From a virus, in the IMG/VR virus record IMGVR_UViG_3300025687_000026, positions 1 to 64,000 of that record: DNA of 64,000 nt, one strand, 5' to 3'. The position numbers were made by a program, and so were the translations under genes. This document shows positions 1-24,295 of this stretch, piece after piece (position 1 is the first letter of the stretch; each line of letters opens with the position of its first letter). The notes beneath the pieces are model-generated. The model ran no database searches. It saw nothing but the letters and a program-made list of their open reading frames with translations, and had not been told where the DNA came from.

Positions 1-2644
1 ATTCTTCACGATACTTGACTTGGTCAGGACGCTTGTTGTAAGCAGCGTCGTATTCCCGCTTGTGACGCATGGCCTCAGGTGATTTGCGCTCTTTAACAAG
101 CACTTCCGAGCGAAGGAAGCCGCCGGATGCCATGCGAGACGCAAGCCCTCCTTGAGATTTATTATAGCGTTCCCAAAAGGCTTTATGGGGATTTTCGACA
201 TCCCATTCAGGAAACTCCTCAGCCATTCGAGCAAGAGCGATGTTGTTGGGATGTTCAGGGTGCGATTTAGCCTCTTGTGACATCAAGAAAAACTGCTTTT
301 CACGAGGTAGAGCGGCGGTGTCTTTTGCAGCATCAAAGTAATGCTGCAGGTAACGATGATATTGGTCATACGCTTCATCAGGGTAAAGATGGTGTTTGTC
401 CGACCGAAACATGCCGCTGTAGTATTCAGTTTCATATTCACGACTGGCCGGGTCAGTCCAGTAAGATGGAACATGCTGCCCATCTTTGTTGGAGATAAAG
501 TCAGCGATGACTCGTTGCTTGTCATGCAGTTCATCGTAAGGAATGAGGGGATAACCCATGTCAAACGCTTCGTCTATAAACTCATCTGATTTTCCAAAGA
601 GGTCGAACGGATTGGTCATGCTTTGTCGGTTGTAGACTTGCTCCATGAAAGGTTGAGTAACGGCGACTGCGTTCTCAAGCGGTTGACCAAAGATACGCTT
701 GTCGTGCTCTTCGTCTCCAATGGTGCGAGTGTAGACGCCTCCGCCATCGGGGTGCATGCGAATGTCCTTACCCGCCAACACTCGTTGAATCATCTCAGGA
801 CTCTCGACGACACCGACTTGATTGCGCTCAAGCACCGAAGCCATTGGACCGCTGGCCTCCATGAAATGCCCCGGTGTGTTCATCGCTTCAACGGCGTGAC
901 CAACAACAGCACGCCTACCGGCCTGAGAGCCGTCTTGTCCAAGCACTGATGACTTGAAGCCGTGCTCAGTTTCTTGGAAAACATGCGCAGCGTCGACATA
1001 CGGGTCTTCGTCGTTGTCAATCAAGTCGTAGCGAGCATGCTTACTTTCGCCACGAAGGTCATCGGCGTTCTTGTATTTAGCATGGCCGCCAATCGGAGCA
1101 TAGGCGATGTTCATGGCCTCAGCCACTTCATTGTAGAGTTCAGGCCGCTCATCCATACCTTCTTTGGGCAGTGAAACCCACTGGTCTTTGATGCCGAAGT
1201 AGTCGTTGAAGGTCTGCTGCTTGAGCAGACGCCAAGCGAGGTCCATCGGCTCTGATGCAATTTTGCGAGCGCCACCTCGCTTGTCTCTCAATGTCTCATC
1301 CATGTCGAGTCCCAACTCATCCGCACGCTCACGGACTTTTCGCATGGCGATGTCCAAAGGTATTTTCTCGCTGAAGGGAACAAAGCCCTCTGTTTCAGGG
1401 GATGTGAACTTCCCAGTAATGGCCCGGAAAGCAGCATCGCCAATCGTCGTGTTCCAATCCCTGTTATAGCGAGCCTCAGGGGTAATTTGTAGACCAACCT
1501 CGTTCATCAAATCTCGTTGATTTTCCATGGCCGCACGCTCCCAGTCGACTGCACGCAACATTTCACGAGGAGTGCGAACGCCGAGTTTCCCTAAGCGACG
1601 ACCTTCACCCCACTTTGCGTTGATGTCTTCAAGACCAAGGGCATGCCCGAGTTCGTGCAATTTTCGCCAGTTGTCGGTAAATGCCGTGTCACTGAACCCA
1701 GCCGTGCGAACTTCCGGGTCGTAAATCGCGAGATGACCAGTTTCGTAATTCTTTTTGTTGAGGTCGGGCATCGGATAACGCCCGCCGAAGTAATACGGCT
1801 CATAACCGTAAGATGCGAGGAGTTCGTCAACATGAGGTGTCAGTTCACTCATTTGCTGAAGTGGGTATGGTTCAAAGGCTTGATTGATAGCGTAAGGGTC
1901 GTAGTAACCGTAATGCCTCATGATGTCCCAAAAACGAGGGTCCCCGGTAGAAGCGTGTTGGTCGCCACCGAGCACTTCTTCTTTCAACAACCGCCAAGCA
2001 AAGTCCATCGGTTCACCTTTGATGAATTGGGAATAGGTTGACATTTGCCCTCCGTGACTGAACGAGTCAAAGCACGATTCACAGAGGTTGTAGGTAACTG
2101 GGCTATGCGGTCGACCTCGTGCCGAATATCCAGTTTTGTATTGTGCGGGTTGCTCTTTGCAGAGTTGACACATATCATCAGGATTGAGTGTCCCAGTTTC
2201 AAGATGTGAAGGCTCATTGTAATCAATCTCGAACGCTTCGTCAGATTTACCAATGGTTGTCCCCGTAGATGCTGCACTGCGAGCCATCTCAGTGGCTCGT
2301 TGCTCCTGCTCCCGCTTTCGCTGCTCGGCTGCCTGCTGCCGCTGTTGAATGCTTTGTTGAACCATCATGGTTCGCTGCAATTTTTTGTTTTGCGGCGTGC
2401 CGCTCTGCATAGCGGCGCTGGCTTGCTCTCTGAGTTCTCCAAGACCCTCTGTGATGTTAGAGCCAGCGGTCTTAGCAGCATCGGCGACTTTACCGACCCC
2501 TGTTTTGGCTGCACCTGCGGTAGCGCTTGCTGCTTTACCTGCGGCTTTAGCCCCTGCTTTGGCTGCACCAAGACCGGCTCGTGCGACAGCGGCAATCGCT
2601 GGAAAGAACTTTTCAACATCGTCCGGGTCGAACGAGGATGTCAT
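1..2644 (-). CDS. Multidomain putative polyprotein (>880 aa, runs off window start): Ala/Lys-rich helix, CxxC..CxxC Zn finger, HExxH zincin-like domain, further domains, separated by EPMD[FL]AWRLLK / GKSDE motifs
   Basis: Absent from the ORF track because it has no stop in the window. I read the frame by hand from ATG 2644 to position 2 with no stop. HELGH at 1643-1657; GEPMDFAWRLLK 1982-2017; SEPMDLAWRLLK 1220-1255. Confidence 0.85.
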   Translation of the reverse strand, partial: MTSSFDPDDVEKFFPAIAAVARAGLGAAKAGAKAAGKAASATAGAAKTGVGKVADAAKTAGSNITEGLGELREQASAAMQSGTPQNKKLQRTMMVQQSIQQRQQAAEQRKREQEQRATEMARSAASTGTTIGKSDEAFEIDYNEPSHLETGTLNPDDMCQLCKEQPAQYKTGYSARGRPHSPVTYNLCESCFDSFSHGGQMSTYSQFIKGEPMDFAWRLLKEEVLGGDQHASTGDPRFWDIMRHYGYYDPYAINQAFEPYPLQQMSELTPHVDELLASYGYEPYYFGGRYPMPDLNKKNYETGHLAIYDPEVRTAGFSDTAFTDNWRKLHELGHALGLEDINAKWGEGRRLGKLGVRTPREMLRAVDWERAAMENQRDLMNEVGLQITPEARYNRDWNTTIGDAAFRAITGKFTSPETEGFVPFSEKIPLDIAMRKVRERADELGLDMDETLRDKRGGARKIASEPMDLAWRLLKQQTFNDYFGIKDQWVSLPKEGMDERPELYNEVAEAMNIAYAPIGGHAKYKNADDLRGESKHARYDLIDNDEDPYVDAAHVFQETEHGFKSSVLGQDGSQAGRRAVVGHAVEAMNTPGHFMEASGPMASVLERNQVGVVESPEMIQRVLAGKDIRMHPDGGGVYTRTIGDEEHDKRIFGQPLENAVAVTQPFMEQVYNRQSMTNPFDLFGKSDEFIDEAFDMGYPLIPYDELHDKQRVIADFISNKDGQHVPSYWTDPASREYETEYYSGMFRSDKHHLYPDEAYDQYHRYLQHYFDAAKDTAALPREKQFFLMSQEAKSHPEHPNNIALARMAEEFPEWDVENPHKAFWERYNKSQGGLASRMASGGFLRSEVLVKERKSPEAMRHKREYDAAYNKRPDQVKYREE

Positions 2645-2650: not shown

Positions 2651-2992
2651 TCACAACAAGCCAAAGTAATCGTTCATCACCGAGTAGAAGGCTTTGGCGA
2701 CAGGCTCAGGCACAGCGTCTTCGGGAGCGGGGGTTTCGCCCTCAGGGTTTTCCGTCGCCTTGGGTTGAGCGGCAAGGTGCTCCTGAAGGAGACTGAAAGC
2801 ATATTCCTTTTCTTCAGGAGGCAAATCCGCCAGTTCGGCAAGAGACATGTGCATGTAATCCTGAATGTTCTTACGCAGCACACCGTCGTCCAAGGCCTTC
2901 ATGAGCAAGGCATCGAATAACGCAGCACCGTAGGTGGCGTTGAAGTGATTCATTTTGATGAGGTCAAAGGCGGCAGCGAAAGCACGGCTCAT
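2651..2992 (-). CDS. Hypothetical protein with variant N-terminal tag (MSRAFAAAFDLIK)
   Basis: ORF track 2651..3016; ATG 2992 preferred because of the tag position and a TATA-like box 27 nt upstream. Confidence 0.75.
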   Translation of the reverse strand: MSRAFAAAFDLIKMNHFNATYGAALFDALLMKALDDGVLRKNIQDYMHMSLAELADLPPEEKEYAFSLLQEHLAAQPKATENPEGETPAPEDAVPEPVAKAFYSVMNDYFGLL

Positions 2993-3009
2993 GCAACTGC
3001 GATGATGTC

Positions 3010-3019
3010 GCTTCATATA
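3010..3019 (-). promoter_or_regulatory. Putative leaderless (late) promoter TATA-like box TATATGAAGC
   Basis: Begins 27 nt upstream of ATG 2992; followed by GACATCAT, as is the copy at 4681-4690. Confidence 0.55.
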
Positions 3020-3032: not shown

Positions 3033-3935
3033 CTACTCCACTGGCTCTCGATTTTGAATCATGTCTCGCCATTTTTGAGCACCAAGTTTCTGACCCCAGT
3101 AATACTCACTTTCACCGCGGTCTTTTTCCTCTTCACCAACAAACTCAAACAAACGACGCTGCTCAGGGTTGTCAATCATGTCGTTCATCAATTGGAGGTT
3201 ACGAAGCCCTCTTCTGTAGAGTTCTTCTTGTGTTCCAAGATACCCCGTGCGAGGGTTGCGAGCGTCATTCCAAGGCTCAAAGCGTGAAGTGTCCCCGTAA
3301 ATGTTGATGAAACTGCGTCGTTGCTCATCGGGCACTTTCAACCAATCTTTCAAACGAGGCATCGTCGATGCCCACTTCTGACCATTTTCATCGTAAGTTG
3401 GCTCTCTATGAGCGCCAAGATTCATCACTTCAAAGTCAATGGCTTTCATACCATCGTCGTAAATGCCCGTGTTTGCTTCACGAACATCCGTAACGCCTAT
3501 GGCCTGCATCAAGGGGTCCTGAATCGGCCCGTAGGTAATGAGCGGGTGCCGCACTGTGTCTCTGAATTGATTCTGAAAATCAGTTTGCTCTTGCCATGTA
3601 GTGTCGGGGTCGTTTGACAAACGAGCCTTTTCATCCGACACCACAGCGTTCGCTCTCGGCTGCGTTGTTCCGGGGTAAGGACCTTGCACAGTGCCTCCAA
3701 TTTTGTAGGCTAAAACCGGTGTTTCAGGCATGACCGGATAACCCAGTTGAGCCAAGGCGTCCATGGCGGCGATGTTTGTCATTTGCTGCCCGCCCATGTT
3801 AGGGAGTTTGATGACTTCGTTCCTGTTCCTTCTGTTTGGAAAGACCTGTCGGAACGACCCTTCACCCATGGGTAATCCTGAAACGCTCACTTTTTCCGCC
3901 TTCAACACAGCCCATGCTGCATCAAAAGCCCTCAT
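3033..3935 (-). CDS. Protein kinase-like fold protein with N-terminal AFDAAWAVLK tag
   Basis: Gly-rich loop GEGSFRQV, VIK lysine, catalytic loop DVREAN (DxxxxN), IDF (DFG equivalent). Confidence 0.7.
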   Translation of the reverse strand: MRAFDAAWAVLKAEKVSVSGLPMGEGSFRQVFPNRRNRNEVIKLPNMGGQQMTNIAAMDALAQLGYPVMPETPVLAYKIGGTVQGPYPGTTQPRANAVVSDEKARLSNDPDTTWQEQTDFQNQFRDTVRHPLITYGPIQDPLMQAIGVTDVREANTGIYDDGMKAIDFEVMNLGAHREPTYDENGQKWASTMPRLKDWLKVPDEQRRSFINIYGDTSRFEPWNDARNPRTGYLGTQEELYRRGLRNLQLMNDMIDNPEQRRLFEFVGEEEKDRGESEYYWGQKLGAQKWRDMIQNREPVE

Positions 3936-4663
3936 CGGTATTCACCTCGTGTCCACACGGGGTCGATGTTGTTGATTAACAGAGGCTTATTGAGCCGATG
4001 CAAACCCATTCGGTATTCTTCATCAGCGTCATGATGTGAGCGTGCTTGTGCGAGTTCATCTGCTCCGTAGTAACCGTATTCGGGACGCAGGATAGCGTTC
4101 ATCAATGCTTCTCTTAACTTCTCATTGGTCATGTCATGACCGAAGAGGTATTTGCTACTCTGCAATTCAATCGGAACAGGGACATCGCCGTAGCCTGCAT
4201 CACGAAGTGCCTGCATGCGATGTCGACCTTCGTGTCCTACAACTCTGAATCCACCGCCTTCTTCGGGCATGACTTTGAGGAACGGGGCGGCAATCGGCGC
4301 ACCTTGGTCCATAAACTCACGAATGGCCGTTTGTTGACCTGAGCGGTGTTCGGGTGCGGGAGCCCCTACCAATTGGTGAAATTGTTCGGGGGTCATCATC
4401 ATTTTACCGGCTTTGAGTTCAAAGCCCGAGTTTTCACCGATGGGGTAGTATTGCTTTTCTTCTCTTGTTCCGCTTTCAATCCACTCACCTGTTTCTTCAT
4501 CTTGCTTGAAGTTGGGCACAGTGTAGGTTTGCGGTAGGTGAGCAAATTGAGCATCGCCTTCAGAGCCACGAACACGCTCGTTGCTGTCCCAAATCTCGTA
4601 GGGGCCTGCGGTGTAGCGAGCCATCTTGAGCACAGCCCACGCTGCGTCAAAGGCTCCGCTCAT
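3932..4663 (-). CDS. ParB/Sulfiredoxin-like domain protein with N-terminal AFDAAWAVLK tag
   Basis: FRVVGHEGRHRMQALRDAGYGDVPV matches the ParB/Srx GxHRxxA signature. Confidence 0.65.
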   Translation of the reverse strand: MSGAFDAAWAVLKMARYTAGPYEIWDSNERVRGSEGDAQFAHLPQTYTVPNFKQDEETGEWIESGTREEKQYYPIGENSGFELKAGKMMMTPEQFHQLVGAPAPEHRSGQQTAIREFMDQGAPIAAPFLKVMPEEGGGFRVVGHEGRHRMQALRDAGYGDVPVPIELQSSKYLFGHDMTNEKLREALMNAILRPEYGYYGADELAQARSHHDADEEYRMGLHRLNKPLLINNIDPVWTRGEYR

Positions 4664-5505
4664 ACCACTGTCATGATGTCGCTTGATAAAGCATTTTTGA
4701 GACGCATCGCTATTTGCTCCGCAGCCTGCAGGCTACGCTCGTCAATGCCTGTTTCAAAGCCCCAAGCGTTGAGATGGCGAACCAATGTTTCGGTAGCAAG
4801 GTTAGCACCGCTGCCTTCAGCGAATGGGCAACCACCAAGACCCCCGATGGACGAGTCAAATTGCCGGATTCCGGCAAGCAAACCGGCTCGAACGAGTGAA
4901 ATCGCCTGTGATTCGTCTCCACGATGATGCAAATGCAGCGCTGGCGTCATTTCATTTTCAAAAGCGACCGATGCTGCTACCGAGATGTCGCTGGGACTCG
5001 CACAGCCGACCGTATCGGCAAAAACCACCGTGTCGCCGAACATTTTGGCGTCTCGAACCATGTTTTGCAGGTGTTTTCGACCAAAAGAGCCGCTATCAGG
5101 GCTTCCAAAGGCCATCGAGATGTAGACTCGGACCTTTTCCTTGGAGTAGTTGTTCAACATTTGACGATAAGTAAGCATCAACTCACCATGTCGCTTACCC
5201 ATGTTGCGCATGCAGAATGTTTCGCACGGTGAGAGGACGATGTTCACTTTTTCAGCGCCGCAGGCCATCGCACGCTCAAATCCACGCTGATTGAGCACCA
5301 AAACCGACCCTTTTCCTGTGAAAACCGCCTCGGCATCGGCCATTTGCGGCAAAATCTTGGGATGAACGAACGAAACTTCCTCGATGTGCTCGATACCGGC
5401 GTTGTAGAGAGCATTGATGAGTTCACGACGCTTTTCAGTCGGCACGACATGCGAAAGTGACTGCAAACCGTCCCGAGGACCGACCTCGTAGACGGTGACT
5501 TTCAC
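4660..5505 (-). CDS. hmgL: Hydroxymethylglutaryl-CoA lyase (DRE-TIM metallolyase), auxiliary metabolic gene
   Basis: EVGPRDGLQ, SFVHPK..PQMADA, ADTVG, HLHH metal ligands, GLGGCPFA..SGANLATE. Confidence 0.9.
   Translation of the reverse strand: MKVTVYEVGPRDGLQSLSHVVPTEKRRELINALYNAGIEHIEEVSFVHPKILPQMADAEAVFTGKGSVLVLNQRGFERAMACGAEKVNIVLSPCETFCMRNMGKRHGELMLTYRQMLNNYSKEKVRVYISMAFGSPDSGSFGRKHLQNMVRDAKMFGDTVVFADTVGCASPSDISVAASVAFENEMTPALHLHHRGDESQAISLVRAGLLAGIRQFDSSIGGLGGCPFAEGSGANLATETLVRHLNAWGFETGIDERSLQAAEQIAMRLKNALSSDIMTVV
4681..4690 (-). promoter_or_regulatory. Putative leaderless promoter TATA-like box TTTATCAAGC
   Basis: Begins 27 nt upstream of ATG 4663; lies inside the 3' end of hmgL. Confidence 0.55.
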
Positions 5506-5696: not shown

Positions 5697-6254
5697 TCAA
5701 AGGCCGTATTGACGGGCTGTTTTGAGGCTGTCTCGGAACTCTCGTCCTTCCCTATTTTCCCTCACATCGTTTCTGAAAGCCATGGGTGATGTCGCATCCG
5801 GCTCACCGGTAGCAATCTCTTCCGGTGTCATGGGCCTACTCGTGACATAAGGTGGTCGGTTGAGCGTAGCCCCTTCTCTAAAATCAGGAACAAAGGCGTT
5901 ATCCAAAGCCGTCATAAGTTTTGAATGAGGAGTCCCTGCTTCGTAAGAATTGATATTGCTGAGACTTCTTCGTTCAAGGTCTGAAGCGGATGAGCGACTT
6001 TCACCGGTCTGTGGGTTGGTGTGAGTGACGGTGTCGAACGGTCGCGGTCGGCTTGAGTCAAAATTGAAAGGTTTGCTCACTGACGGCGGCAATCCATACG
6101 GGTCTGTGGCCCGCTGAACCATACCGGCAATAGCAGGGTGAACTGTTTGACTGACCGAGATGTTCCCCGGCCCGCCCGAAGGAGGGCCAAACATTCGTTG
6201 ACGAGGGTCCGCTTTGAGAACAGACCATGCTGCATCGAAGGCTCTCATCATCAA
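5697..6254 (-). CDS. Hypothetical protein with AFDAAWSVLK tag
   Basis: ORF track; shares TVHPAIxGxxQR with 6251..6790. Confidence 0.75.
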   Translation of the reverse strand: MMMRAFDAAWSVLKADPRQRMFGPPSGGPGNISVSQTVHPAIAGMVQRATDPYGLPPSVSKPFNFDSSRPRPFDTVTHTNPQTGESRSSASDLERRSLSNINSYEAGTPHSKLMTALDNAFVPDFREGATLNRPPYVTSRPMTPEEIATGEPDATSPMAFRNDVRENREGREFRDSLKTARQYGL

Positions 6255-6790
6255 AACTCCCTGTAAGGAACAGAATCTCTGCTGAATCGAGAAAATATGT
6301 GCGACGGCCTCATAGGTTGCCCTTGTTCGCGCCGACGAATTGCGGCTTCTCGGAGACTTCTTGTTGGATATTGAGCAAAGAAAGCAAGGTTTTGGTCTTC
6401 ATCTTCAAAGTAAGGTAATTCTTTCACACCATGTGACCTTTGAGCAATATCAAGGCTGTGTTGAGAAGAGCCCGGACTTGGTTTTATGGTTTCGACAGGG
6501 TCTTCGTAGAGTGTGCCTAAGTCTTCAATTTTTGGACCGGGTGACGACCAATGTCGGGGAGGGTCAAATTGCATTGAAGGTCTTGCCCGATTAAAGTCCG
6601 TATATCCATCCGGCCCAACTCCACGATGAAGGCGTTGCAGCAATCCTCGAATTGCGGGGTGAACGGTTCCAAACCGCTCTTGTGTAGGCTGTGTTTCAAA
6701 CCTTCCATCGCCCCTTTGCTCAAACACTTGGTCTTCAGGGAGCGCTTTGATAACGGACCATGCTGCGTCAAAGGCTCTCATGGGTTTCAC
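6251..6790 (-). CDS. Hypothetical protein with AFDAAWSVIK tag
   Basis: ORF track; 4-nt overlaps with neighbours; segment paralogous to 5697..6254. Confidence 0.75.
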   Translation of the reverse strand: MKPMRAFDAAWSVIKALPEDQVFEQRGDGRFETQPTQERFGTVHPAIRGLLQRLHRGVGPDGYTDFNRARPSMQFDPPRHWSSPGPKIEDLGTLYEDPVETIKPSPGSSQHSLDIAQRSHGVKELPYFEDEDQNLAFFAQYPTRSLREAAIRRREQGQPMRPSHIFSRFSRDSVPYREF

Positions 6791-7215
6791 TCTCCGAAGT
6801 GATAATCAGTTAACGGCATGGCTTCACGGGTGCGGAAACCGGGGCGAGGTGTCGTTGGCGCTCGCTCTCCACGACGCATCTCACGGGGTTTGCCCGCTGA
6901 GAGCGGCATCGTTTGGCCCGTTGAGCCAAGAGGAACATCGGTGTCGATGGGGCGAGGAGCGGCCGCTACAGGAGCCTGCTCCACGAACGGGTTGAATGGC
7001 TCGCCGCCGGGCTGTGAAAACGCACCCCGGCTATCTCGGGGGTCAGGCAAGTTTCGCATAGCGTCGATGCGGGCCTGATGGAATGCGTTAGCGCCAGCCA
7101 TAGCATCGTCACGAAGCGCCATGCGCCCTTCACGGCCCAGCGTGCGCTGACCACGATAGGAGTTCACATCGTATTGCTTGATGATGGACCAAGCGGCGTC
7201 AAAGGGTCGGACCAT
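6787..7215 (-). CDS. Hypothetical protein with PFDAAWSIIK tag
   Basis: ORF track; tag at N-terminus. Confidence 0.75.
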   Translation of the reverse strand: MVRPFDAAWSIIKQYDVNSYRGQRTLGREGRMALRDDAMAGANAFHQARIDAMRNLPDPRDSRGAFSQPGGEPFNPFVEQAPVAAAPRPIDTDVPLGSTGQTMPLSAGKPREMRRGERAPTTPRPGFRTREAMPLTDYHFGE

Positions 7216-7245: not shown

Positions 7246-8340
7246 TTATTGGATGTAATTTGCCCGTGTCCTTCGAGCCATCTCCGATGCGTCGTCCATA
7301 GGGAAAAGCGGTTGATTGGCCTCCCAAGCGGCGTAGTCTGACTCCAAAAGACCGGGAAGCCGACTTTGTGAAAAGATTCGCGAACCGTAAGCGGGATTGG
7401 GAAGACGCATAGGCGCATCTTGCACAAGCCCGTAGGATGGATTGCTGTAATGGGAATCTATCCCCTTTTCGCGCTGTGCGTTTTTTAGACTGTTAATCAC
7501 TCTTCGTCTTTCATAGTCAAAACCACCATTATCACGAGCAAGGATTTCACGAGCCGCCTCGGTCGGGACAATGATGTCCCGGTTACGATGGTAATGTGGT
7601 CTTCCTGCTATTGGTCCCGGCACCTCAAGGTCACGAGTTCGATAAGACTCGCTTGAGCGGTCAAAAAAGGGCACGGTGATACGATGCGGTCCGCGCAGGT
7701 CGCCCCAATCGCCGCCCGGCCCGTGTTTGCCGGGGAAGTAAGGAGCGTGGGTGTAGTGATGGTCGTCATATTCGCTGTCACCCGATGAATCAAATATCGT
7801 GCTAACATCTATGTCGTCAGGTAGCGTGCGAATGAACTTTTTGTGAAACGGGTCGGACATTTCGTTGCGTGAATGTGAAGTCAATGGGAAACCATGCCGA
7901 ATGAGATTTTCAATCAGTTCACGGTAGTAGCCCTTGCGTCGATGCTGTGCGGGGACCTCACCGGCAAAATCGCTGATTTGATTTTCTCTGTTAGTGTGGA
8001 TTTCAGCCAACCGTTCCCCTGCTTCGTCTTCAAGGGCATAGGTGACAGCGTCATCAAATTGAAACCCTGCTGCAGTTGGATTCTCAAATGTCCTTACGAT
8101 GCGAGCAGGCATTCTTCTGCGGGCGACATAACGCTCACGCTGCCGTGGGTTATTCAGAACTTCTTCAAGACCTTCGAGGAAAGGCCCCATCTGACGAGGC
8201 CCCTCATCCGCAAAGCCACGGCCATCTCTTCGCCTGCTTCGCCTGCTATCAGCAATCATCTGCCCTTCGTAGCCGGGAAGCCTTGACTGCCGATTGACTT
8301 GTTTAAGCAGCAACCACGCTTGCTCAAACGCTTCCGACAT
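7246..8340 (-). CDS. GNAT-like acetyltransferase domain protein with MSEAFEQAWLLLK tag
   Basis: VPAQHRRKGYYRELIENL resembles GNAT acetyl-CoA binding motif A; start moved to the tag Met at 8340. Confidence 0.55.
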   Translation of the reverse strand: MSEAFEQAWLLLKQVNRQSRLPGYEGQMIADSRRSRRRDGRGFADEGPRQMGPFLEGLEEVLNNPRQRERYVARRRMPARIVRTFENPTAAGFQFDDAVTYALEDEAGERLAEIHTNRENQISDFAGEVPAQHRRKGYYRELIENLIRHGFPLTSHSRNEMSDPFHKKFIRTLPDDIDVSTIFDSSGDSEYDDHHYTHAPYFPGKHGPGGDWGDLRGPHRITVPFFDRSSESYRTRDLEVPGPIAGRPHYHRNRDIIVPTEAAREILARDNGGFDYERRRVINSLKNAQREKGIDSHYSNPSYGLVQDAPMRLPNPAYGSRIFSQSRLPGLLESDYAAWEANQPLFPMDDASEMARRTRANYIQ

Positions 8341-8344
8341 GCTT

Positions 8345-8869
8345 TTACCGCCTGTAATCACGCAGACGCCTCAAATCACGAGCAACTTCTTCATCGCTCA
8401 ATGGTTTGATTTTGCGACGATAGGAGAGCGGAGCGATAGAGCGTCGATGCGCTTCGGCAAGGTAACGCTGTATCTCTTCCATGTCGATGCCCTGTTCCCA
8501 TGGGATTGCTTCAGGGAGGCTTCCTTCGGGGTCTTCAACCGCTATGGGAGCGTTGCGAGCCTCTATGGCCTGCTGAGCAAACATGCGAGCGTCAGCGGGG
8601 TTGCGAGATGTCCTTGCTTGATGGTCGAGATTGGCGGCTTCCATCCACGGATTCAGGTCAACAAAGCCCTGCGGGAAGGGCGTGAGCGGTTTGTGTCCAG
8701 CAGGTTGAAGCCACCGTGGATTGGTGTTACCACGAGGCGTGTAGGTGTCGAGCATGGATTGCATGTTTTGATAATGACGCAAGTCTTGCTCAGGAGCATT
8801 CGGGTCGTCCTGAAAAGCAGGGTTGAGAGCCTTGAGGACGCTCCACGCCTGCTCAAACGCTTCCGACAT
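8345..8869 (-). CDS. Hypothetical protein with MSEAFEQAWSVLK tag
   Basis: ORF track 8345..8950; start moved to 8869, whose first 27 nt nearly match the start of the 8340 gene. Confidence 0.75.
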   Translation of the reverse strand: MSEAFEQAWSVLKALNPAFQDDPNAPEQDLRHYQNMQSMLDTYTPRGNTNPRWLQPAGHKPLTPFPQGFVDLNPWMEAANLDHQARTSRNPADARMFAQQAIEARNAPIAVEDPEGSLPEAIPWEQGIDMEEIQRYLAEAHRRSIAPLSYRRKIKPLSDEEVARDLRRLRDYRR

Positions 8870-8983
8870 GGCTGGGCCTAAGGTGCTTGAGATTTTGAGG
8901 CCATCGGTAATGAAAGGTAGTTCTGTAGGTAAAATTATTATTTTTTTCAATTTTTTTTGGAGCGGTGTGCGCGGTCATAAGGA

Positions 8984-14742: not shown

Positions 14743-14867
14743 TTTACGAGTTCGGTGCTTGTCCTGAATGCGACATGCCTTGCTCGTTCACTCTGCATCC
14801 CGATGCTATTCGTGGTGACACTTGGGTGTGCAACTGCGAGTGCAATTTGAAGGAGGGCAACTGCTGA

Positions 14868-14891
14868 CTTCACTACTTAAAGCGGCATCAA
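14868..14891 (+). promoter_or_regulatory. 24-bp viral element copy 4
   Basis: CTTCACTACTTAAAGCGGCATCAA. Confidence 0.7.
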
Positions 14892-14916
14892 TGCAACAGG
14901 ACAAGGAGACGATTGA

Positions 14917-15255
14917 ATGATTGACACAAGCAAATACGAAGGACACACACCGGGGCCGTGGGAGGCGGAACTGGACGACACTGATGGGCACATGTATGTG
15001 GCTATCGCTGAGGGAGATGAAAAGCGAGAGGTGTTTTTGGACTTACCATGCTGGGTGTGTGAGGAAGACATGTTGGAACTCACGGCTACTGCTGAACTGA
15101 TAGCAGACGCACCACTTCTCCTCGCAGAAGTCAAGCGGTTGCGTGAGCGACTCATTAGAGCATACGATTGGGCTGAGAATGCGGTCAATGGTAATGACTC
15201 AGCGATGATGGACTACATTGAATATGTGTGCGGAGACGAAGGTGAAGAGGAATGA
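14917..15255 (+). CDS. Ead/Ea22-like small protein, paralog 1
   Basis: HTPGPW...LIADAPLLLAEVKRL. Confidence 0.7.
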   Translation: MIDTSKYEGHTPGPWEAELDDTDGHMYVAIAEGDEKREVFLDLPCWVCEEDMLELTATAELIADAPLLLAEVKRLRERLIRAYDWAENAVNGNDSAMMDYIEYVCGDEGEEE

Positions 15256-15536
15256 TTGACACAGACAAATACGAAGGACACACGCTGAACGACTCGTTGA
15301 AAATGGGTGAACCCGACTACGACGACGCGAGGGAAATGTTGTGTGGTGGTGGACTCGTCGGGTGGCTCATCATGAGCGACCATCCGGGTGCTGAAACAAA
15401 CGCACAACTCATCGCAGATGCACCACTTCTCCTCGCAGAAGTCAAGCGGTTGCGTGAAGCGATTGAATACGCCATTGTTCATGCGGAGAACTATGATGTG
15501 ATTAGGGTCTTAGATGAGGTGATGAAAAATGATTGA
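15252..15536 (+). CDS. Ead/Ea22-like small protein, paralog 2
   Basis: MIDTDKYEGHT...NAQLIADAPLLLAEVKRL. Confidence 0.7.
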   Translation: MIDTDKYEGHTLNDSLKMGEPDYDDAREMLCGGGLVGWLIMSDHPGAETNAQLIADAPLLLAEVKRLREAIEYAIVHAENYDVIRVLDEVMKND

Positions 15537-15918
15537 TGAAAGCAAATACGAAGGACGCACAGAAGGTAAATGGGAATACGACAGTGCTACTATTCATGCT
15601 ACTGCTAAAGGTGGTAATGAAATCATAGCGGAATACCCTTGTTGGAATTACAACAAAGACCAACTGATAACCAAAGAGGAAGAGGCTAACCTACGACTCA
15701 TGGCGGACGCACCACTTCTCCTTGAAGAACTGAAGAGACTACAACACAGACTCATGCTTGCAGAATCAGCCCTTGGTGAAATCCGTGCCTACCATGAAAG
15801 TGGTAGCGGCGACCTCGGTGAAATCATCCAACACTACAGGGACAACGAGGGCGTTGAAATGCCGAATGCGTTTGACGAGGATGATGATTCTTCATATACT
15901 GTGGAAGGAGATGACTGA
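15529..15918 (+). CDS. Ead/Ea22-like small protein, paralog 3
   Basis: MIDESKYEGRTEGKW...ANLRLMADAPLLLEELKRL. Confidence 0.7.
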   Translation: MIDESKYEGRTEGKWEYDSATIHATAKGGNEIIAEYPCWNYNKDQLITKEEEANLRLMADAPLLLEELKRLQHRLMLAESALGEIRAYHESGSGDLGEIIQHYRDNEGVEMPNAFDEDDDSSYTVEGDD

Positions 15919-15919
15919 C

Positions 15920-16387
15920 ATGACAACAAACAGCAACGAGATGTATGACGAATGGGAGAACCAAACTGAAGGGCAGTGCCCTAAGTGTGGAGAAGGTGAC
16001 ACCTCCATGGCTCAGGAGTTCAATCAGTTTTGGACTCGCTGGGACACACGCCCTGAGAAGATGAGCACAGACGGAGAAGAGATGGTTCTCATCAGGACGA
16101 AGTGTAGCGTGTGCGATTGGGAAGGCTCGTTCATGTATGAACTCGGCCCCTTCGCTGGCTACATCACCGACGAGCAGATGAAAGTCCATGAGGCTATCAT
16201 GGAGGCGAAGGATGAGGCTCGCAACCAAGCCGTCATGGATGGTGTGCTGTGCTTCATGCACGAAGTAGAGAACTGCGATGACCCCATGTGTCAGGCCCCG
16301 GTGCCTGAGCCCCAGCCTGTCAACCATGGCGAAGCGTTCAGCATGGTGAACCGTGCGCTCGCATCCGTCGTCGACGAGGAGGAATGA
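15920..16387 (+). CDS. Zn-ribbon hypothetical protein
   Basis: CPKC...CSVC; start inferred from SD spacing. Confidence 0.65.
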   Translation: MTTNSNEMYDEWENQTEGQCPKCGEGDTSMAQEFNQFWTRWDTRPEKMSTDGEEMVLIRTKCSVCDWEGSFMYELGPFAGYITDEQMKVHEAIMEAKDEARNQAVMDGVLCFMHEVENCDDPMCQAPVPEPQPVNHGEAFSMVNRALASVVDEEE

Positions 16388-16441
16388 GCATGACATATAC
16401 ACAAAGCGTAGGACAACCAAGACAAAAAGGACAACAGCAAA

Positions 16442-16465
16442 CTTCACTACTTAAAGCAGCATCAA
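16442..16465 (+). promoter_or_regulatory. 24-bp viral element copy 5
   Basis: CTTCACTACTTAAAGCAGCATCAA then GGAGGA and ATG 16494. Confidence 0.72.
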
Positions 16466-16493
16466 AAACGGAAAGCAGCAAGGAGGAACAAGA

Positions 16494-16892
16494 ATGACCC
16501 TGACCCATTACCAATGCGAACAACTGATGAGCACGGCTCGTGACCCTTACAAGGGCAAGCCGATGAAGAACAACACCCGACTGTATAAGTTGGGCGACCA
16601 CTACGGACTTGAACTGCACGGCACCATGGTGCTCCGCATCTATGTGGATGGATGGGTGCTCAGTGCTGGTGGTTGGACTACTGTGACAACCAAAGCGAGG
16701 CTCAATGAGTTCGGCCCGGCGCGTATCTCCCAGCGTGACTGGACTTGGTATGTTGCCTCCCCTGACGGTGACAAGATGTTTCACAACGGCATCTTCGTGG
16801 ACTTGAATCACAATGTGTGGGACAGCCGTGCCCACTACCTACACTCACTTACACTCAGTCAGCCTGATGACATCTCGGAGGTGGTTGAATGA
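16494..16892 (+). CDS. Hypothetical protein of a phage-type family (GGWxTxTTKxRLN)
   Basis: ORF with SD; recognisable motif of unknown function. Confidence 0.7.
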   Translation: MTLTHYQCEQLMSTARDPYKGKPMKNNTRLYKLGDHYGLELHGTMVLRIYVDGWVLSAGGWTTVTTKARLNEFGPARISQRDWTWYVASPDGDKMFHNGIFVDLNHNVWDSRAHYLHSLTLSQPDDISEVVE

Positions 16893-17001
16893 TGGAGGAC
16901 AGTTACAGCAGACTCATCCTGTGGATGCTCAACCACAAACCAACACGCCCTGCTGATGACTACGATGACATCGCTGGCTTTGAACCAACGGAGGGTTACT
17001 G

Positions 17002-17313
17002 ATGGCGAACGATACAATCAAGGAAACATTCACGGAGACACGAAGCCTGAACAGAGAGAACTCCTTCGGGACTGTGGCTACTGCGGAGGACATTGAACTC
17101 ACTGTGGACATTGGCTTCAGCCCGAGCACCGGGCGTGGTTGGTTTGAGTTCTACGACGAAGAACAGGACTGGTATGCTTCAGGTGGACTACGGATTACCG
17201 ACGGTGTGCTCACGGACTACGATGGAGTCTTTGCTCTACCCGACTTTGTGCTGGACTGGCTACAGACGCAAGGCGTTGATGTCACCGAGATGCGGAGGGT
17301 GATGAACGAATGA
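17002..17313 (+). CDS. Hypothetical protein
   Basis: ORF with SD GGAGG. Confidence 0.7.
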   Translation: MANDTIKETFTETRSLNRENSFGTVATAEDIELTVDIGFSPSTGRGWFEFYDEEQDWYASGGLRITDGVLTDYDGVFALPDFVLDWLQTQGVDVTEMRRVMNE

Positions 17314-17408
17314 GCATCGTCACACGGCACGGTCAGGCTCAGGTGGTTGTCATCGTTGAGCGAGAAGACGGACAGATGGAAGTCATCTTGGAACTGATGG
17401 ACTGAGGA

Positions 17409-17432
17409 CTTCACTACTTAAAGCGGCATCAA
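17409..17432 (+). promoter_or_regulatory. 24-bp viral element copy 6
   Basis: CTTCACTACTTAAAGCGGCATCAA upstream of ArdC. Confidence 0.72.
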
Positions 17433-17460
17433 TAACAAAGGACAGCAAGGAGGAACAACC

Positions 17461-18411
17461 ATGGCGAAGATGAGTAGAGAACAGAAGAAGACATACGGCA
17501 AACAGAAGAGCGATGAGATGAGCGAGCGGTGGTTCAACGCCATCGCTGACGGCATCAAGTCAGGCAACATCCCATGGCGTAAGCCGTGGAACGGTGGTGC
17601 TTCAGGTATGCCTCAGAACCTCAAGAGCAAGAAGACTTACCGTGGTGGTAACTTGATGGGACTGTGGTTCTCAGCCATGGCGGCTGGCTTCAGCGACCTT
17701 CGGTTCGCCACACGCAACCAACTCAAAGAGGCGGGCATGAGCATCGCTGGCCTGAAGAACGGGACTGGTTTCCCCATCCGCTTCTTCAAACCCAACACCT
17801 ACGAGAAAGAGAACGAGCGAGGCGAGGTTGAGGTTCGCTCAGGTTATGTCACCCGGTGGTATGAGGTGTGGTGCGTTGAGCAGTGCGAGGGTTACGAAGC
17901 CCCTCCCGTGAGCGACTCTCATCAACCTGTTCCCGTCCATGAGATGATGAGCAACTTCAACACCTATGTTGAGAGTCAACCCACGCTGACCTTGAACCGT
18001 GGCGGCAATCGTGCCTTCTATCGGCTCAACGGCGACACCATCCAACTCCCCGTCCACGAAGCATTCACCGATTCACTCGGCGAAGTCATGACGGCGTTTC
18101 ACGAAGCGGTTCACTCCACTGGGCACCCCCAGCGTTGTGAGCGTGACCTGAAGAACTCGTTCGGCTCCCCTGAGTATGCGCTTGAGGAACTGGTCGCTGA
18201 ACTTGGCTCCATGCTTACTGTTGTGCGCCTTGGTGGTGAGTTCAAACCTGATGCTGTCATGGAGGAAAACGCCAACAACATCGCCTACCTTCAGTCATGG
18301 CTCAAGGCTTGTAACGAGCAAGACAAAGCCCTCACCGCCGCATTCGGTCAGGCTCAAGCGGCCTCCGACTACATCGTTTCCTACTGTCAAAGCGAGGAGG
18401 TGAACGAATGA
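17461..18411 (+). CDS. ardC: ArdC-like antirestriction protein (ssDNA-binding domain + zincin-like domain)
   Basis: IPWRKPW, YRGGN, AFY, HEAVHSTGH, YALEELVAELGS, YLQSW. Confidence 0.85.
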   Translation: MAKMSREQKKTYGKQKSDEMSERWFNAIADGIKSGNIPWRKPWNGGASGMPQNLKSKKTYRGGNLMGLWFSAMAAGFSDLRFATRNQLKEAGMSIAGLKNGTGFPIRFFKPNTYEKENERGEVEVRSGYVTRWYEVWCVEQCEGYEAPPVSDSHQPVPVHEMMSNFNTYVESQPTLTLNRGGNRAFYRLNGDTIQLPVHEAFTDSLGEVMTAFHEAVHSTGHPQRCERDLKNSFGSPEYALEELVAELGSMLTVVRLGGEFKPDAVMEENANNIAYLQSWLKACNEQDKALTAAFGQAQAASDYIVSYCQSEEVNE

Positions 18412-18848
18412 GGAGCATCACATACACAGTCTACACGATTGACGAACATCCCGACAAGGAGAAGTGCTACGAGTGGATGCGGGACAACTTAGACTACTTG
18501 TCTGAGCACGAAGGTGAGGCATTCCTTGCTTCCCTCACCAAGTTGCACGAACACATTGGAGGCAAGTTCGACTACCGCGTTTCCCTTTATGTGGACCGAG
18601 GTGATGTGATTCGCTTCACGGACTACGATGAAGAACTGCTGGCTGAACTTGATGCAGATGCTTGCCCCTTGACTGGTTGCTATTGGGATGCGGAAGTGAT
18701 TGAACACCTGCGTGCCGATAACATGCGAGGGTTGATGGACAAACTGAACAAGGCACACGACTACTGCTACACCGACGAGGCTTTGCACGAAACGGCTGAG
18801 GCTAACGGATGGGAGTTCAAAGAGAACGGGGTGATGGAGAATGAATAG
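18408..18848 (+). CDS. Hypothetical acidic protein
   Basis: ATGA overlap; C-terminal EANGWEFKENG. Confidence 0.7.
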   Translation: MRSITYTVYTIDEHPDKEKCYEWMRDNLDYLSEHEGEAFLASLTKLHEHIGGKFDYRVSLYVDRGDVIRFTDYDEELLAELDADACPLTGCYWDAEVIEHLRADNMRGLMDKLNKAHDYCYTDEALHETAEANGWEFKENGVMENE

Positions 18849-19035
18849 TGGAATGATTGGAGATAAGGAAGTTGAGATGCACGAACTTGCTGACTTCACT
18901 TGGGCTATTGACATTGTTCGACACACATCTGAGGACACGAAAGAGTTGCTCGAAGGATGGATAGTCGCAGATGAACAAAAGGCACTTACATTGTATGATG
19001 AAAAAGTAAAGGAATTGCAGGAGATGATTGAATGA
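18841..19035 (+). CDS. Hypothetical protein
   Basis: Overlapping ORF chain. Confidence 0.55.
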   Translation: MNSGMIGDKEVEMHELADFTWAIDIVRHTSEDTKELLEGWIVADEQKALTLYDEKVKELQEMIE

Positions 19036-19535
19036 CTTGGGAAATGAGCGAATTGACATATGAAGTGACAGGAGAACACAGGGGTTGGATGTTGATTAAC
19101 ACCGAAACCAAGCGAACCATCGCTTGCGAATCGGAAGCCGAAGCAAGGGCTATCGCAGACGCACCACTTCTCCTTGAAGAAGTCAAGCGACTACAAAAGG
19201 TGGAGGCTCTCGCTGAGAAGCGGTTGGAGTTTATCCAACGCTTGATGAGCGAGAACGAGAACATGCGCTCTGACCTGTTTTGGCTTACGAACACGATGGA
19301 CGAAGGCCAACAGAAGGACACGGACTACCTCAAGCAACGAGCAGTTCACCCATCCATCGCTGACTTCGTTCAGAGCCTTGCTGAATGGGGCTTCAACCAT
19401 GTCGACCACGGATTCCTGTGGGAAGCCATGGTTTCAGTCATCGAGGCTGGCGAGCGTGGCGACCTTGATGACTTGATTGAGGAACAGGATTCACTACTTA
19501 AAGCGGCATCAAATGATGAGGGGGAGGAAGAATGA
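19032..19535 (+). CDS. Ead/Ea22-like protein, paralog 4
   Basis: AIADAPLLLEEVKRL; DNA at 19155-19189 similar to the 15103 and 15414 blocks. Confidence 0.65.
   Translation: MTWEMSELTYEVTGEHRGWMLINTETKRTIACESEAEARAIADAPLLLEEVKRLQKVEALAEKRLEFIQRLMSENENMRSDLFWLTNTMDEGQQKDTDYLKQRAVHPSIADFVQSLAEWGFNHVDHGFLWEAMVSVIEAGERGDLDDLIEEQDSLLKAASNDEGEEE
19489..19512 (+). promoter_or_regulatory. 24-bp viral element copy 7
   Basis: ATTCACTACTTAAAGCGGCATCAA inside the 3' end of a CDS. Confidence 0.65.
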
Positions 19536-19669
19536 AAGGAACAATGATTGCACTACGAAAAGCACAGAAGGAGAACCGTGAACTCAAGGAGAGACTCAAG
19601 GCCATGGAGCAGTGGCTCTCCGAAGAGACGATGGCCGAGATGGAAAAGCATGGGTGGGTGTTTGAATGA
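19532..19669 (+). CDS. Small coiled-coil protein (45 aa)
   Basis: Hand-translated; ATGA overlaps at both ends. Confidence 0.55.
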   Translation: MKGTMIALRKAQKENRELKERLKAMEQWLSEETMAEMEKHGWVFE

Positions 19670-19890
19670 TTACCTCATGTTTGAGCGTTAAATGCGAGTG
19701 TTGCAGGGAGCACTACAAAACCGAAGAACTTCACTCGCAAGAAGTGACGGAACTCAACCGACTCATCACTGAGATGCACAACATGCACATTCTCGGCACC
19801 CCCTTCAAGGAATGGGACATTGAGTTGCAGATAGCGGCCATGTCAGCGTATCTTGAAACGAAGGAATCGAAAGAGGAGTTGATTGCATGA
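19666..19890 (+). CDS. Hypothetical protein
   Basis: ATGA overlaps. Confidence 0.55.
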   Translation: MITSCLSVKCECCREHYKTEELHSQEVTELNRLITEMHNMHILGTPFKEWDIELQIAAMSAYLETKESKEELIA

Positions 19891-20180
19891 CCCGCATCAC
19901 TGCTGAAAGCATCCGTATGCAGATGGATTCTCTTCGCCTCCAACTGCGACGGCTTGAAGAGTTCAACTCCAAGAACTTCACTCCTGAGAAGTGCGCTGAA
20001 AAAGAACACTACTGGGTGGCTGTTGACAGCGAGCATGACTTCGGTGTCTACAACTGCGTCCTGATGGAGTGTCAACAGTGCGGCACCCGACAGTGGTGGA
20101 ACTACGATTTCAAGGACTCTGATGAAGAGGACCCATGGTCCGACCTGCGCCCTGAAGAACCCAAGGAGGAAGAGGAATGA
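19887..20180 (+). CDS. Hypothetical Zn-binding protein
   Basis: CxxxxH...CxxC; ATGA overlaps. Confidence 0.6.
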   Translation: MTRITAESIRMQMDSLRLQLRRLEEFNSKNFTPEKCAEKEHYWVAVDSEHDFGVYNCVLMECQQCGTRQWWNYDFKDSDEEDPWSDLRPEEPKEEEE

Positions 20181-20695
20181 ACATCTTCGTGCTCCATGAG
20201 AACCCCATCATCGCCGCTGAGATGCACTGCGACAAGCATGTGCCCAAGATGTGCGTCGAGGCCGCACAGATGATGGCCTCAGCCCTGCGCCGATGGGGGG
20301 CCACCGATGAGGACATGCCTCTCACCAAAGCAGGTAAGCCCTACAAGGGCGGCTACGCTCACCATCCCTGCACCGTTTGGGCCGGGGATTCATGGGCCAA
20401 CCTTGACTGGCTTGGCTCTCACGCCATCGCTCTCTGTCAAGAATATGAGGCTCGCTTCGGCAAGGAGCACGCTTGCTGGCGACCCATCGTTCACATGAAC
20501 TCACTCGCTCTCACACCACGCTTCTTCAACGATGCTGACAGGCTGACCCCGTTCGCTCAGGCCATGCCCGACGAACACCGTAACCCGTGCGCCATCACGG
20601 CCTACCGTTCTTACTACCATGACAAGACCTTCGCCAAGTGGGAGAAGGGCACACCTGCTCCCGACTGGTGGCGAGGCGTGGAGGTGACGGCATGA
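20177..20695 (+). CDS. Pyrimidine-dimer DNA glycosylase / endonuclease V-like family protein
   Basis: MNIFVL..HCDKHVPKM..EAAQM, HHPCTVW, EY..RFGK.H, QAMPD, AYR.YY. Confidence 0.75.
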   Translation: MNIFVLHENPIIAAEMHCDKHVPKMCVEAAQMMASALRRWGATDEDMPLTKAGKPYKGGYAHHPCTVWAGDSWANLDWLGSHAIALCQEYEARFGKEHACWRPIVHMNSLALTPRFFNDADRLTPFAQAMPDEHRNPCAITAYRSYYHDKTFAKWEKGTPAPDWWRGVEVTA

Positions 20696-20799
20696 GTGAT
20701 ACGAATGCACACAACCTGAAAATCAAAATTGAGACGGACGAATACATCTACTGGGAATACACGGAGGCATAAATCAGTTGAAAACCGATGGACTGAGGA

Positions 20800-20823
20800 C
20801 TTCACTACTTAAAGCAGCATTAA
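20800..20823 (+). promoter_or_regulatory. 24-bp viral element copy 8
   Basis: CTTCACTACTTAAAGCAGCATTAA then GGAGGAAACAAAC-ATG 20853. Confidence 0.72.
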
Positions 20824-20852
20824 GAAAAGAGGACAACAAGGAGGAAACAAAC

Positions 20853-23165: not shown

Positions 23166-24271
23166 GCAACTGGATGAACGAGACGAGCAAGAAGACTGGA
23201 TGTCACACCGGCAACCCCGTGGTGTTTGAAGCGATGGGTGTCAAGGTGCACGCTGGAGGGCACAGCCGTAACGGTGGCTACCACCGCATGTCACCTGCGC
23301 CTGACCTCGCCATGGGTCCTGCTCAGGTCATGGGCAAGCAATCAGCAACCGTAGTCCCCGACGGTTTCACCTGCGCTGAGCATGTGTCGACCCCATACAT
23401 CATCAGCATCGACTGGCCTGACTTCGACATCCCTCAGGACATCCACCGTGAGTGGTGGCTCTCCCTCGTTGATGACATGCGACGACTCGGTATCAAGAGC
23501 GTCTCCACGCAGTGCGTTGGTGGCCATGGTCGCACTGGTGTGCAACTCGCCATCCTTGCTCACATCATGGGTGCAGTGCAGAAGCCCGATGCCGCCTCCC
23601 TCATCAAGTGGGTGCGCTCTACCTACTGCAGTCACGCTGTTGAGACTGCGAGTCAACAACAGTATGTTGCCGAGTGCTGTGACATACCCATGGGGGATTC
23701 ATTGTTCGCATCATTCAAGGCCCGTGGGCCGTCCTTGACCTTCAGTGATGATGCCCCAGTCAGCGTGCCTAAAAGCATCTACTGGGCTGACGAGGATGAA
23801 GACTATGAAGACGGGCTCTCCATACCCAAGGGCTTCAATCTCCTCGGCTGTCACGACTGTGGTGACCTGAGTTGGGTGCATGAAGACGATGCTGATAAAC
23901 CGTGCAAGTGCGGTAGCCCTGAGCGACTGAATACCAACGACATCCTCTACGATACAAATGCAACTTGCCTTGAGTGCGACAGCCCGTGCAACGACTTAGC
24001 CATCCAATCTGATGGCCGTTGCCTATCTTGTCATGCTCAGGAGCAGAAGAAGAAGACACGGGATGGCGATGTGCAGTGCGGTAAGTGCAAGCGTTACTAC
24101 ATCCCTGAGGTCATCAACTGTAAGACATTCCACTGTGTGGGTTGCGAGCGCAAGGCCACACAGAAGCCCAAGGGCAAAGGCAAGAAAGGACTCAAGCCTG
24201 TGCCCAAGGGCGGGCTCAAGGGCAAGGACCTGTATGACTTCGTTGATGGCTTTAAGGAGGACAACTGCTGA
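23162..24271 (+). CDS. Cys-based (PTP/dual-specificity) phosphatase with C-terminal Zn-finger repeats
   Basis: IDWPDF (WPD loop), QCVGGHGRTG (CX5R, Cys codon 23513), AVETASQ (Q loop), multiple CxxC. Confidence 0.85.
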   Translation: MSNWMNETSKKTGCHTGNPVVFEAMGVKVHAGGHSRNGGYHRMSPAPDLAMGPAQVMGKQSATVVPDGFTCAEHVSTPYIISIDWPDFDIPQDIHREWWLSLVDDMRRLGIKSVSTQCVGGHGRTGVQLAILAHIMGAVQKPDAASLIKWVRSTYCSHAVETASQQQYVAECCDIPMGDSLFASFKARGPSLTFSDDAPVSVPKSIYWADEDEDYEDGLSIPKGFNLLGCHDCGDLSWVHEDDADKPCKCGSPERLNTNDILYDTNATCLECDSPCNDLAIQSDGRCLSCHAQEQKKKTRDGDVQCGKCKRYYIPEVINCKTFHCVGCERKATQKPKGKGKKGLKPVPKGGLKGKDLYDFVDGFKEDNC

Positions 24272-24295
24272 CTTCACTACTTAAAGCAGTATCAA
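24272..24295 (+). promoter_or_regulatory. 24-bp viral element copy 9
   Basis: CTTCACTACTTAAAGCAGTATCAA immediately after a stop codon. Confidence 0.72.

Follow-up and report, generated by a model that had tools for sequence, protein, structure and literature searches.

A conserved helical tag at the module borders of a putative cargo protein in a group-A-like magrovirus

The stretch of DNA analysed here (the window, 64,000 nucleotides) covers the opening 64 kb of one contig of 107,060 bp, IMG/VR virus record IMGVR_UViG_3300025687_000026, and positions in the window are genome positions. At its start lies, on the minus strand, a large multi-module open reading frame (ORF) that holds copies of a short peptide motif, which we call the tag. 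The same tag heads at least eight neighbouring proteins in the window and two more beyond it. A conserved junction motif joins units that also exist as separate proteins, as in viral polyproteins.

Magroviruses rank among the most abundant archaeal viruses of the surface ocean; they infect uncultured hosts, and the majority of their late genes are without assigned function. The contig encodes a family-B DNA polymerase (PolB), a thermosome-type chaperonin (Cpn60_TCP1) and an SNF2 helicase, together with the head module of a tailed virus (TerL, portal, S78 prohead protease and major capsid protein, MCP). The protease ORF has a long scaffold-like C-terminal region. The contig ends (1-702 and 106359-107060) are 97.4% identical, with 18 mismatches and no gaps, and since they overlap by 702 nt the map is circular or terminally redundant with a length of about 106.4 kb, probably assembled from two strain variants. 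The IMG/VR record classes the genome as linear and 100% complete. Group-A magroviruses have a thermosome, an SNF2 helicase and a terminally redundant genome of about 100 kb, and they infect Marine Group II (Poseidoniales) archaea (PMC5434244). Since PolB, the chaperonin, the SNF2 helicase and the terminal redundancy fit this description, the genome is that of a group-A-like magrovirus of about 106 kb, a virus of Poseidoniales archaea. Relatives of its MCP are encoded on more than 590 IMG/VR contigs, and the 80 that were retrieved are 80-96% identical.

The sequence-only reading of this stretch had described a hidden frame of more than 880 residues, missing from the ORF list, and had placed in it two tags, an HExxH motif and two GKSDE spacers (2222-2251 and 560-595). 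All of these positions are correct on the minus strand, and the frame is a genuine gene, which was missing only because default ORF lists leave out frames that are open at the sequence end. It runs from 2644 to 2 and encodes 881 aa inside the window. Joined across the contig junction, with the 702-nt overlap counted once, it encodes 989 aa, with the stop at genome position 106033. Homologues on other contigs, some of them longer than 100 kb, align over residues 1-989, which confirms that the natural gene is continuous. The ORF gave no Pfam or PHROG match, even at E<=5, and no PDB sequence match.

The strict tag pattern was searched in six frames of the 107 kb genome. We found 11 matches, all of them in late ORFs of the minus strand; the plus strand gave none. 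Seven lie at the N-termini of window genes, one at the start of p200 (92113-92715), two inside the multi-module ORF and one inside p302. The seven window genes are consecutive, between 3033 and 8950, and their tags, at residues 3-5, have the form M-x-x-(A/P)F(D/E)xAWxx(L/I)K. A small hidden Markov model (HMM), built from the tags of relatives, added four more, namely a second tag in p302, one each in p477 and in an ORF of 53 aa, and a variant with which the gene at 2651-3016 starts. Tags are confined to the minus-strand late operon near the genes for TerL, portal, MCP and the S78 protease-scaffold protein. Their occurrence is far beyond chance, because every strict match falls in these late ORFs and the tag is conserved where its flanks are not.

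From 125 distinct internal copies in relatives we obtained the consensus (A/T)(G/S)-E-P-M-(D/E)-(I/L)-A-(W/M/Y/F)-(R/Q)-L-L-K. The Pro, the Met, the Ala and both Leu are each at least 90% conserved in these copies, while the flanking positions reach at most about 36%. The tag is also kept in homologues of 40-88% identity, where its flanks are not conserved. It forms a 13-residue amphipathic helix, with M/F, A, W, L and L on one hydrophobic face. The synonymous codons differ between copies (4-6 Leu codons, three Pro codons and both Lys codons), and because of this variation the tag peptide itself is taken to be under selection. The residue after the tag Lys is variable (A, E, M, N, S, D and others).

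The tag is not bound to one position or to one kind of protein. In related loci 42 copies are N-terminal, 74 internal and six C-terminal, with up to seven per ORF. The sampled loci hold 128 tag-bearing ORFs, and the segments between their tags fall into 87 clusters. A strict DNA pattern for EPMDxAWRLLK was present in 19 IMG/VR stretches, none of them on a contig longer than about 109 kb. One complete relative, with an exact 123-bp terminal repeat (MCP 69% and TerL 51% identity), carries nine tags on other cargo and has no homologue of the multi-module ORF. Term searches in two magrovirus papers returned no mention of the motif.

Next to the tags themselves, the homologues of the ORF showed where its modules end. 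Forty homologues from the database align to 22-79% of the query and have as many as four tags, at differing positions, and at least five modules (A-E) distribute independently among them. The BLAST segments break near query residues 134, 210-229, 450-489, 680-699 and 840-849, and these sites correspond to both GKSDE spacers, both tags and one VLVKERK junction. Over all protein pairs, 28% of the internal homology breakpoints lie inside tags compared with 4% for random positions, counted as pairs and not as independent events. The claim that tags mark module boundaries was thereby supported. Module loss falls at the motifs as well, as an ortholog comparison had been expected to reveal: in the database proteins P0004-6 module B and exactly one tag are deleted, and in four other homologues module D is absent and the deletion starts exactly at the GKSDE junction (P numbers denote database proteins and L numbers related loci, with positions inside the locus). 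Among four loci with module B in common, conservation runs as far as LLK, and the sequences directly after it are unrelated.

Modules were found both as stand-alone proteins with an N-terminal tag and in fusions with an internal tag, and the alignment between the two forms begins at most four residues from the tag. The p200 protein of this genome matches P0024 residues 422-613, an internal module. L087:6037-7650 matches the last module of L084:3065-6148, a protein of 1,027 aa with six tags, and P0015 matches L085:6018-7904. Module E goes through a whole series. In L122, L123 and L127-129 it is a separate gene of about 143 aa that starts with MTDIGVVRKERK and continues with SPEA. It is fused in L124 with the former start Met retained, in L120 and L130 via hybrid junctions (GEPMDLGVGVIRKERK), in L132 and L133 via a full tag, and in the 989-aa ORF via the degenerate SEVLVKERK. 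The proposal that formerly separate tagged genes were fused is supported by these stand-alone and fused pairs and by the module E series. The direction of the change, fusion or fission, appears clear for module E only. At the N-terminus of the ORF itself (2605-2644, minus strand), FDPDDVEKF (homologues have MAEAFDPDDVEKF) resembles an N-terminal tag with the hydrophobic W and L positions turned acidic, and it may be a tag that no longer works or a signal of another kind.

The whole-protein AlphaFold2 (AF2) model had a mean predicted local distance difference test (pLDDT) score of 44 and was too poor for a fold search; both tags appear in it as short helices in low-confidence regions. Module B, which contains the HExxH motif, was modelled alone from a 45-sequence alignment taken from a full HMMER scan, and this model reached pLDDT 89 and a predicted template modelling score (pTM) of 0.83. 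In this model the domain takes up residues 1-222 of the fragment; after it come a low-confidence linker and then tag 2 as a separate helix (Table 1). The expectation that the motifs lie in linkers between independently folding domains held for tag 2, which is outside the module B fold and beyond the linker; the other motifs were placed only in the whole-protein model.

At E<=1e-3 the module B family comprises 314 clusters, out of 1.84 billion representatives, and the domain takes variable positions in proteins of 185-2,933 aa. Its HExxH (H102, E103, H106) lies in model helix 92-117 and is invariant in 45 diverse relatives. W98, R99, G118, R122, W140, E141, D175 and R179 are invariant too, E141 and D175 being candidates for the third metal ligand. 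The HExxHxxGxxD form, including D112, is kept only among close relatives. The long family members (1,000-2,900 aa) also carry InPase, mCpol, S-AdoMet lyase and DUF3293, and distant relatives sit in giant "polyvalent" proteins of phages. A module B search of IMG/VR gave four loci, and in every carrier the module is tag-flanked on both sides.

We observed no Pfam, PHROG or PDB sequence match for module B, and Foldseek gave no PDB match at E<=0.001. The best VIA-align match was weak, to ArdC (6sna_A, Z 5.0, root-mean-square deviation 6.4 Å, 132 aligned residues), and the next was PprI/IrrE (Z 4.0). The BFVD search gave one clear family member (E 3.5e-21) and weak matches annotated as phage "peptidase", M48, SprT-like, IrrE-like, "large polyvalent protein associated" and ART-PolyVal-like. 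The ESM Atlas gave a weak lead for module B, with Peptidase_M78 in 14% of one cluster, and for module C it gave nothing. Module B carries HExxH on a long helix, as zincin-like domains of the ArdC/SprT/IrrE type do, and its weak structural matches include such proteins, but it has no significant sequence or Foldseek match. The structure searches are weak yet point one way, toward a possible zincin-like metallopeptidase. Among the modules of the ORF, an activity is predictable for module B only.

Two side observations belong to these modules. The last conserved helix of module B (1331-1363, minus strand) reads IPLDIAMRKVR, with the family consensus vPLe.aL, and resembles the tag; this hints that the tag may derive from the C-terminal helix of the module B domain. 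The sole match of module C in the GenBank phage collection was a 735-kb uncultured huge-phage record (LR756501/LR756503), with 28.6% identity over residues 476-656.

The genes around the ORF share its tag and little else. BLASTP of the nine stand-alone tagged proteins (eight in the window and p200) gave self-matches only, and they have nothing in common but the tag. The tagged neighbours have no Pfam or PHROG match, even at E<=5, and the ParB-like and GNAT-like readings of two of them, made by eye, were dropped for the lack of such support. The coordinates are collected in Table 1.

Table 1. Modules, tags and junctions of the multi-module ORF, and the tagged neighbouring genes
Feature	Position	Strand	Remarks
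Multi-module ORF, N-terminal 881 of 989 aa	1..2644	-	last 108 aa past the junction, at genome 106033-106358
Module A1, residues 1-131	2252..2644	-	conserved N-terminus FDPDDVEKF, Ala/Gly/Lys-rich stretch, Gln-rich long helix (predicted helix 85-125)
Spacer 1, GKSDEAFEIDY	2219..2251	-	like first half of N-terminal tag (SEAFEQAW), without LK end
Module A2, CQLC (2159-2170) and CESC (2072-2083)	2021..2218	-	candidate zinc ribbon; low AF2 confidence
Internal tag 1, GEPMDFAWRLLK, residues 210-221	1982..2017	-	HMM 23.9 bits; predicted isolated helix 212-221, coil on either side
Module B, HExxH domain of about 220 aa, folded residues 229-450	1295..1981	-	HELGH at 1643-1657; pLDDT 89
Linker, module B to tag 2	1256..1294	-	low confidence, model residues 223-237, pLDDT about 47-54
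Internal tag 2, SEPMDLAWRLLK, residues 464-475	1220..1255	-	HMM 26.1 bits; model helix 237-251, outside fold
Module C, residues 476-683, mixed alpha/beta	596..1219	-	homology segments and AF2 model
Spacer 2, GKSDEFIDEAFDMGY, half-tag-like junction	551..595	-	module D deletion point in P0002, P0009, P0011, P0023
Module D, residues 699-845, helical	110..550	-	homology segments and AF2 model
Degenerate tag SEVLVKERK, D/E junction	83..109	-	relatives grade from full tag to VLVKERK
Module E start, SPEAMRHKREYD...	2..82	-	runs on past contig junction; own gene in several relatives
Neighbour, variant N-terminal tag MSRAFAAAFDLIK	2651..3016	-	tag HMM
Neighbour, N-terminal tag MRAFDAAWAVLK	3033..3935	-	strict pattern and HMM
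Neighbour, N-terminal tag MSGAFDAAWAVLK	3932..4663	-	strict pattern and HMM
Neighbour, N-terminal tag MRAFDAAWSVLK	5697..6254	-	strict pattern and HMM
Neighbour, N-terminal tag MRAFDAAWSVIK	6251..6790	-	strict pattern and HMM
Neighbour, N-terminal tag MVRPFDAAWSIIK	6787..7215	-	strict pattern and HMM
Neighbour, N-terminal tag MSEAFEQAWLLLK	7246..8361	-	strict pattern and HMM
Neighbour, N-terminal tag MSEAFEQAWSVLK	8345..8950	-	strict pattern and HMM

Amid the tagged cluster, 4660-5505 (minus strand) encodes an HMGL-like (DRE-TIM metallolyase) enzyme (Pfam E 2e-24) that is without an N-terminal tag and has a tag-like AEQIAMRLKNAL near its C-terminus. The p302 gene (genome 91208-92116, minus strand; L002:7208-8116) is a second, smaller tagged HExxH cassette, in the order DUF5872 domain, tag, small HEDMH module, second tag and repeated basic tail of the DUF5872 part. 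Between portal and p302 we observed a homing-endonuclease-like gene (genome 89959-91185, minus strand; L002:5959-7185) with a GFLDADG motif and a PHROG match to HNH endonuclease. The far end of the late operon holds an ORF of 3,899 aa (52186-63885, minus strand) with no Pfam match and no tag, adjoined by a tail-fibre-like ORF of 1,014 aa (47390-50434). Repeated elements of 56-83 nt precede early genes on the plus strand at about 14846-24807 (self-BLAST; for example 15095/15406, 17392, 20783-20865, 24264 and 24752).

Taken together, the feature is best filed as a polyvalent cargo protein combined with a signal of the capsid-targeting type. In polyvalent proteins, zincin-like metallopeptidases are the commonest domain and were proposed to process the fusions, and InPase, mCpol and S-AdoMet lyase are further domains (Iyer et al. 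2017, PMC5512222). Our ORF is likewise a large late-operon protein that strings together unrelated modules, among them a zincin-like HExxH module, and solo modules also exist. It lies in the same-strand operon as TerL, portal, S78 protease and MCP, and the module B family shares the InPase, mCpol and S-AdoMet-lyase partners, the polyvalent annotations in BFVD being only weak matches. In contrast to the polyvalent proteins described so far, it belongs to an archaeal virus, a conserved 13-residue helix marks its junctions and heads solo proteins, and only one of its modules has a predictable activity. A term search of that paper returned no description of a junction motif.

By analogy, the capsid targeting sequence (CTS) of phage T4 is the closest precedent for the tag; the T4 peptide ends in a recognition motif of the prohead protease. 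The diverse internal proteins of T4 have only the CTS in common, and it directs them into the scaffolding core (PMC3012670). Both signals are short peptides common to otherwise unrelated proteins that are encoded with head genes. However, the tag is not strictly N-terminal, as its positions in relatives show, and no sequence relation between the two signals is expected. The proteases differ as well, S78 (HK97-type) here and gp21 in T4. Encapsulin cargo-loading peptides are also short, sit at either terminus and dock diverse cargo inside an HK97-fold shell, and many of them have a hydrophobic residue and then Lys or Arg at the end. They are extended and not helical, unlike the tag, and are not repeated between domains.

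We propose, with about even confidence, that the ORF is a late-gene mosaic "polyvalent" virion cargo protein, whose modules are joined by a cargo-docking helix tag, or by degenerate forms of it (the GKSDE..AF.. spacers and VLVKERK), and are perhaps cut by the S78 protease. The tag helix would dock the cargo inside the assembling procapsid, on the scaffold or on the inner face of the capsid protein. The hydrophobic-hydrophobic-Lys end of the tag is a possible site for the S78 prohead protease, which would trim the tags and cut the fusion into pieces, and the pieces would be delivered to the host together with the DNA. Recognition or docking is at least part of the selected function, because tags at the extreme termini have nothing to release; the six C-terminal tags of related loci have nothing downstream of them. 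The original interpretation of the ORF as a polyprotein cut at Lys into several mature proteins was partly supported, in its module borders and gene fusion, and cutting at Lys is inferred. Cleavage after Lys would be masked by trypsin in standard proteomics. We hold only tentatively the wider idea that one position-independent helical tag is both address and release signal for magrovirus cargo, so that a protein of any kind would turn into cargo on acquiring it, with tagged cassettes fused, split and swapped freely.

Several points weigh against this proposal. The unconstrained residue after the tag Lys is not what is usual where a protease site is tight. In favour of cutting, possible protease sites are ELLK at residues 30-34 of the MCP and SLLK near the start of the protease ORF, just ahead of the conserved core, but they are only suggestive. 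The MCP motif says little, because the N-terminus of this protein is conserved throughout, and its use as a cleavage test was uninformative since the retrieved MCPs, at least 80% identical, are conserved along the whole length. The whole-protein AF2 model is poor (pLDDT 44), and the linker placement is well supported for tag 2 only. The codon usage inside the tags is skewed, with GCT, GAC and CCA favoured, so some homogenisation or gene conversion at the DNA level, or shared ancestry, may also contribute to their likeness. Finally, the presence of tagged proteins in the virion and their cutting are both things that we infer from sequence.

It is unlikely that the tag acts outside the virion, where its helix would drive oligomerisation or bind some hub of the infected cell, be it a membrane, a host factor or the chaperonin of the virus. 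Such a role would suit an amphipathic helix that is found at any position in a protein, in a virus that encodes its own thermosome-type chaperonin. However, the confinement of the tags to the late structural operon, near the terminase and portal genes, speaks for the virion. The chaperonin is present in only about half of magroviruses (PMC5434244), and module B has its relatives in polyvalent proteins of phages, for which injection is predicted.

The HExxH modules themselves raise the idea of a self-processing polyvalent protein, in which an embedded metallopeptidase (module B or the HEDMH module of p302) recognises the tag and cuts the junctions, as was proposed for the metallopeptidase domains of such proteins (PMC5512222). 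The family keeps its HExxH without exception, all carriers of module B have tags on both sides of it, and the p302 module is also bracketed by two. We nevertheless consider this quite unlikely. In five relatives that are 91-100% complete and have the strict tag, module B is absent, and this absence is meaningful because the same search recovered four out of four known carriers. The p302-type module is absent in four of the five, those in which it was searched. Since complete tagged relatives lack them, the HExxH modules look like cargo and not like a general processing enzyme, and the tags at extreme N- and C-termini would have nothing to release by self-cutting. These relatives point instead to the S78 prohead protease, which is universal in these viruses, or to docking alone.

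Internal translation starts, with the tag Met as start codon and separate proteins beginning with MDxAWRLLK made without proteolysis, are very improbable. The Met is 90% conserved at its tag position, the start Met of stand-alone module E aligns with it in the hybrid junctions, and one database gene call, P0303, begins with MDLAWRLLK. However, no Shine-Dalgarno sequence is conserved: of 45 tags, 31 have GGC as the Gly codon ahead of the Met, and Ser takes the place of this Gly in 23 tags. Since GGC predominates over GGT, an internal ribosome-binding site before the tag Met was unsupported. In some tags the Met is replaced with Ile, Phe or Val. Least probable of all is that the tag is only a recombination joint, its DNA kept for cassette exchange like the pre-toxin motifs of polymorphic toxins and its peptide without biochemical role: the breakpoints inside tags, the skewed codons and the hybrid junctions would fit, but synonymous variation stands beside near-total amino-acid conservation, the tag is kept at the N-termini of single-module genes, and between the N-terminal and the internal subtype the DNA and some residues differ while the helix pattern stays the same.

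If the wider idea of one tag for both address and release is true, no cargo-loading signal would have been defined earlier in an archaeal virus, and polyvalent proteins would gain their first defined junction motif. With the tag, the long-standing idea that processing of polyvalent proteins takes place at defined sites becomes directly testable. Should the tag load cargo into an HK97-fold shell, it could be put to use as a portable tag for encapsidation. For the magroviruses, this single conserved tag singles out a whole class of likely virion-delivered proteins directly from the sequence.

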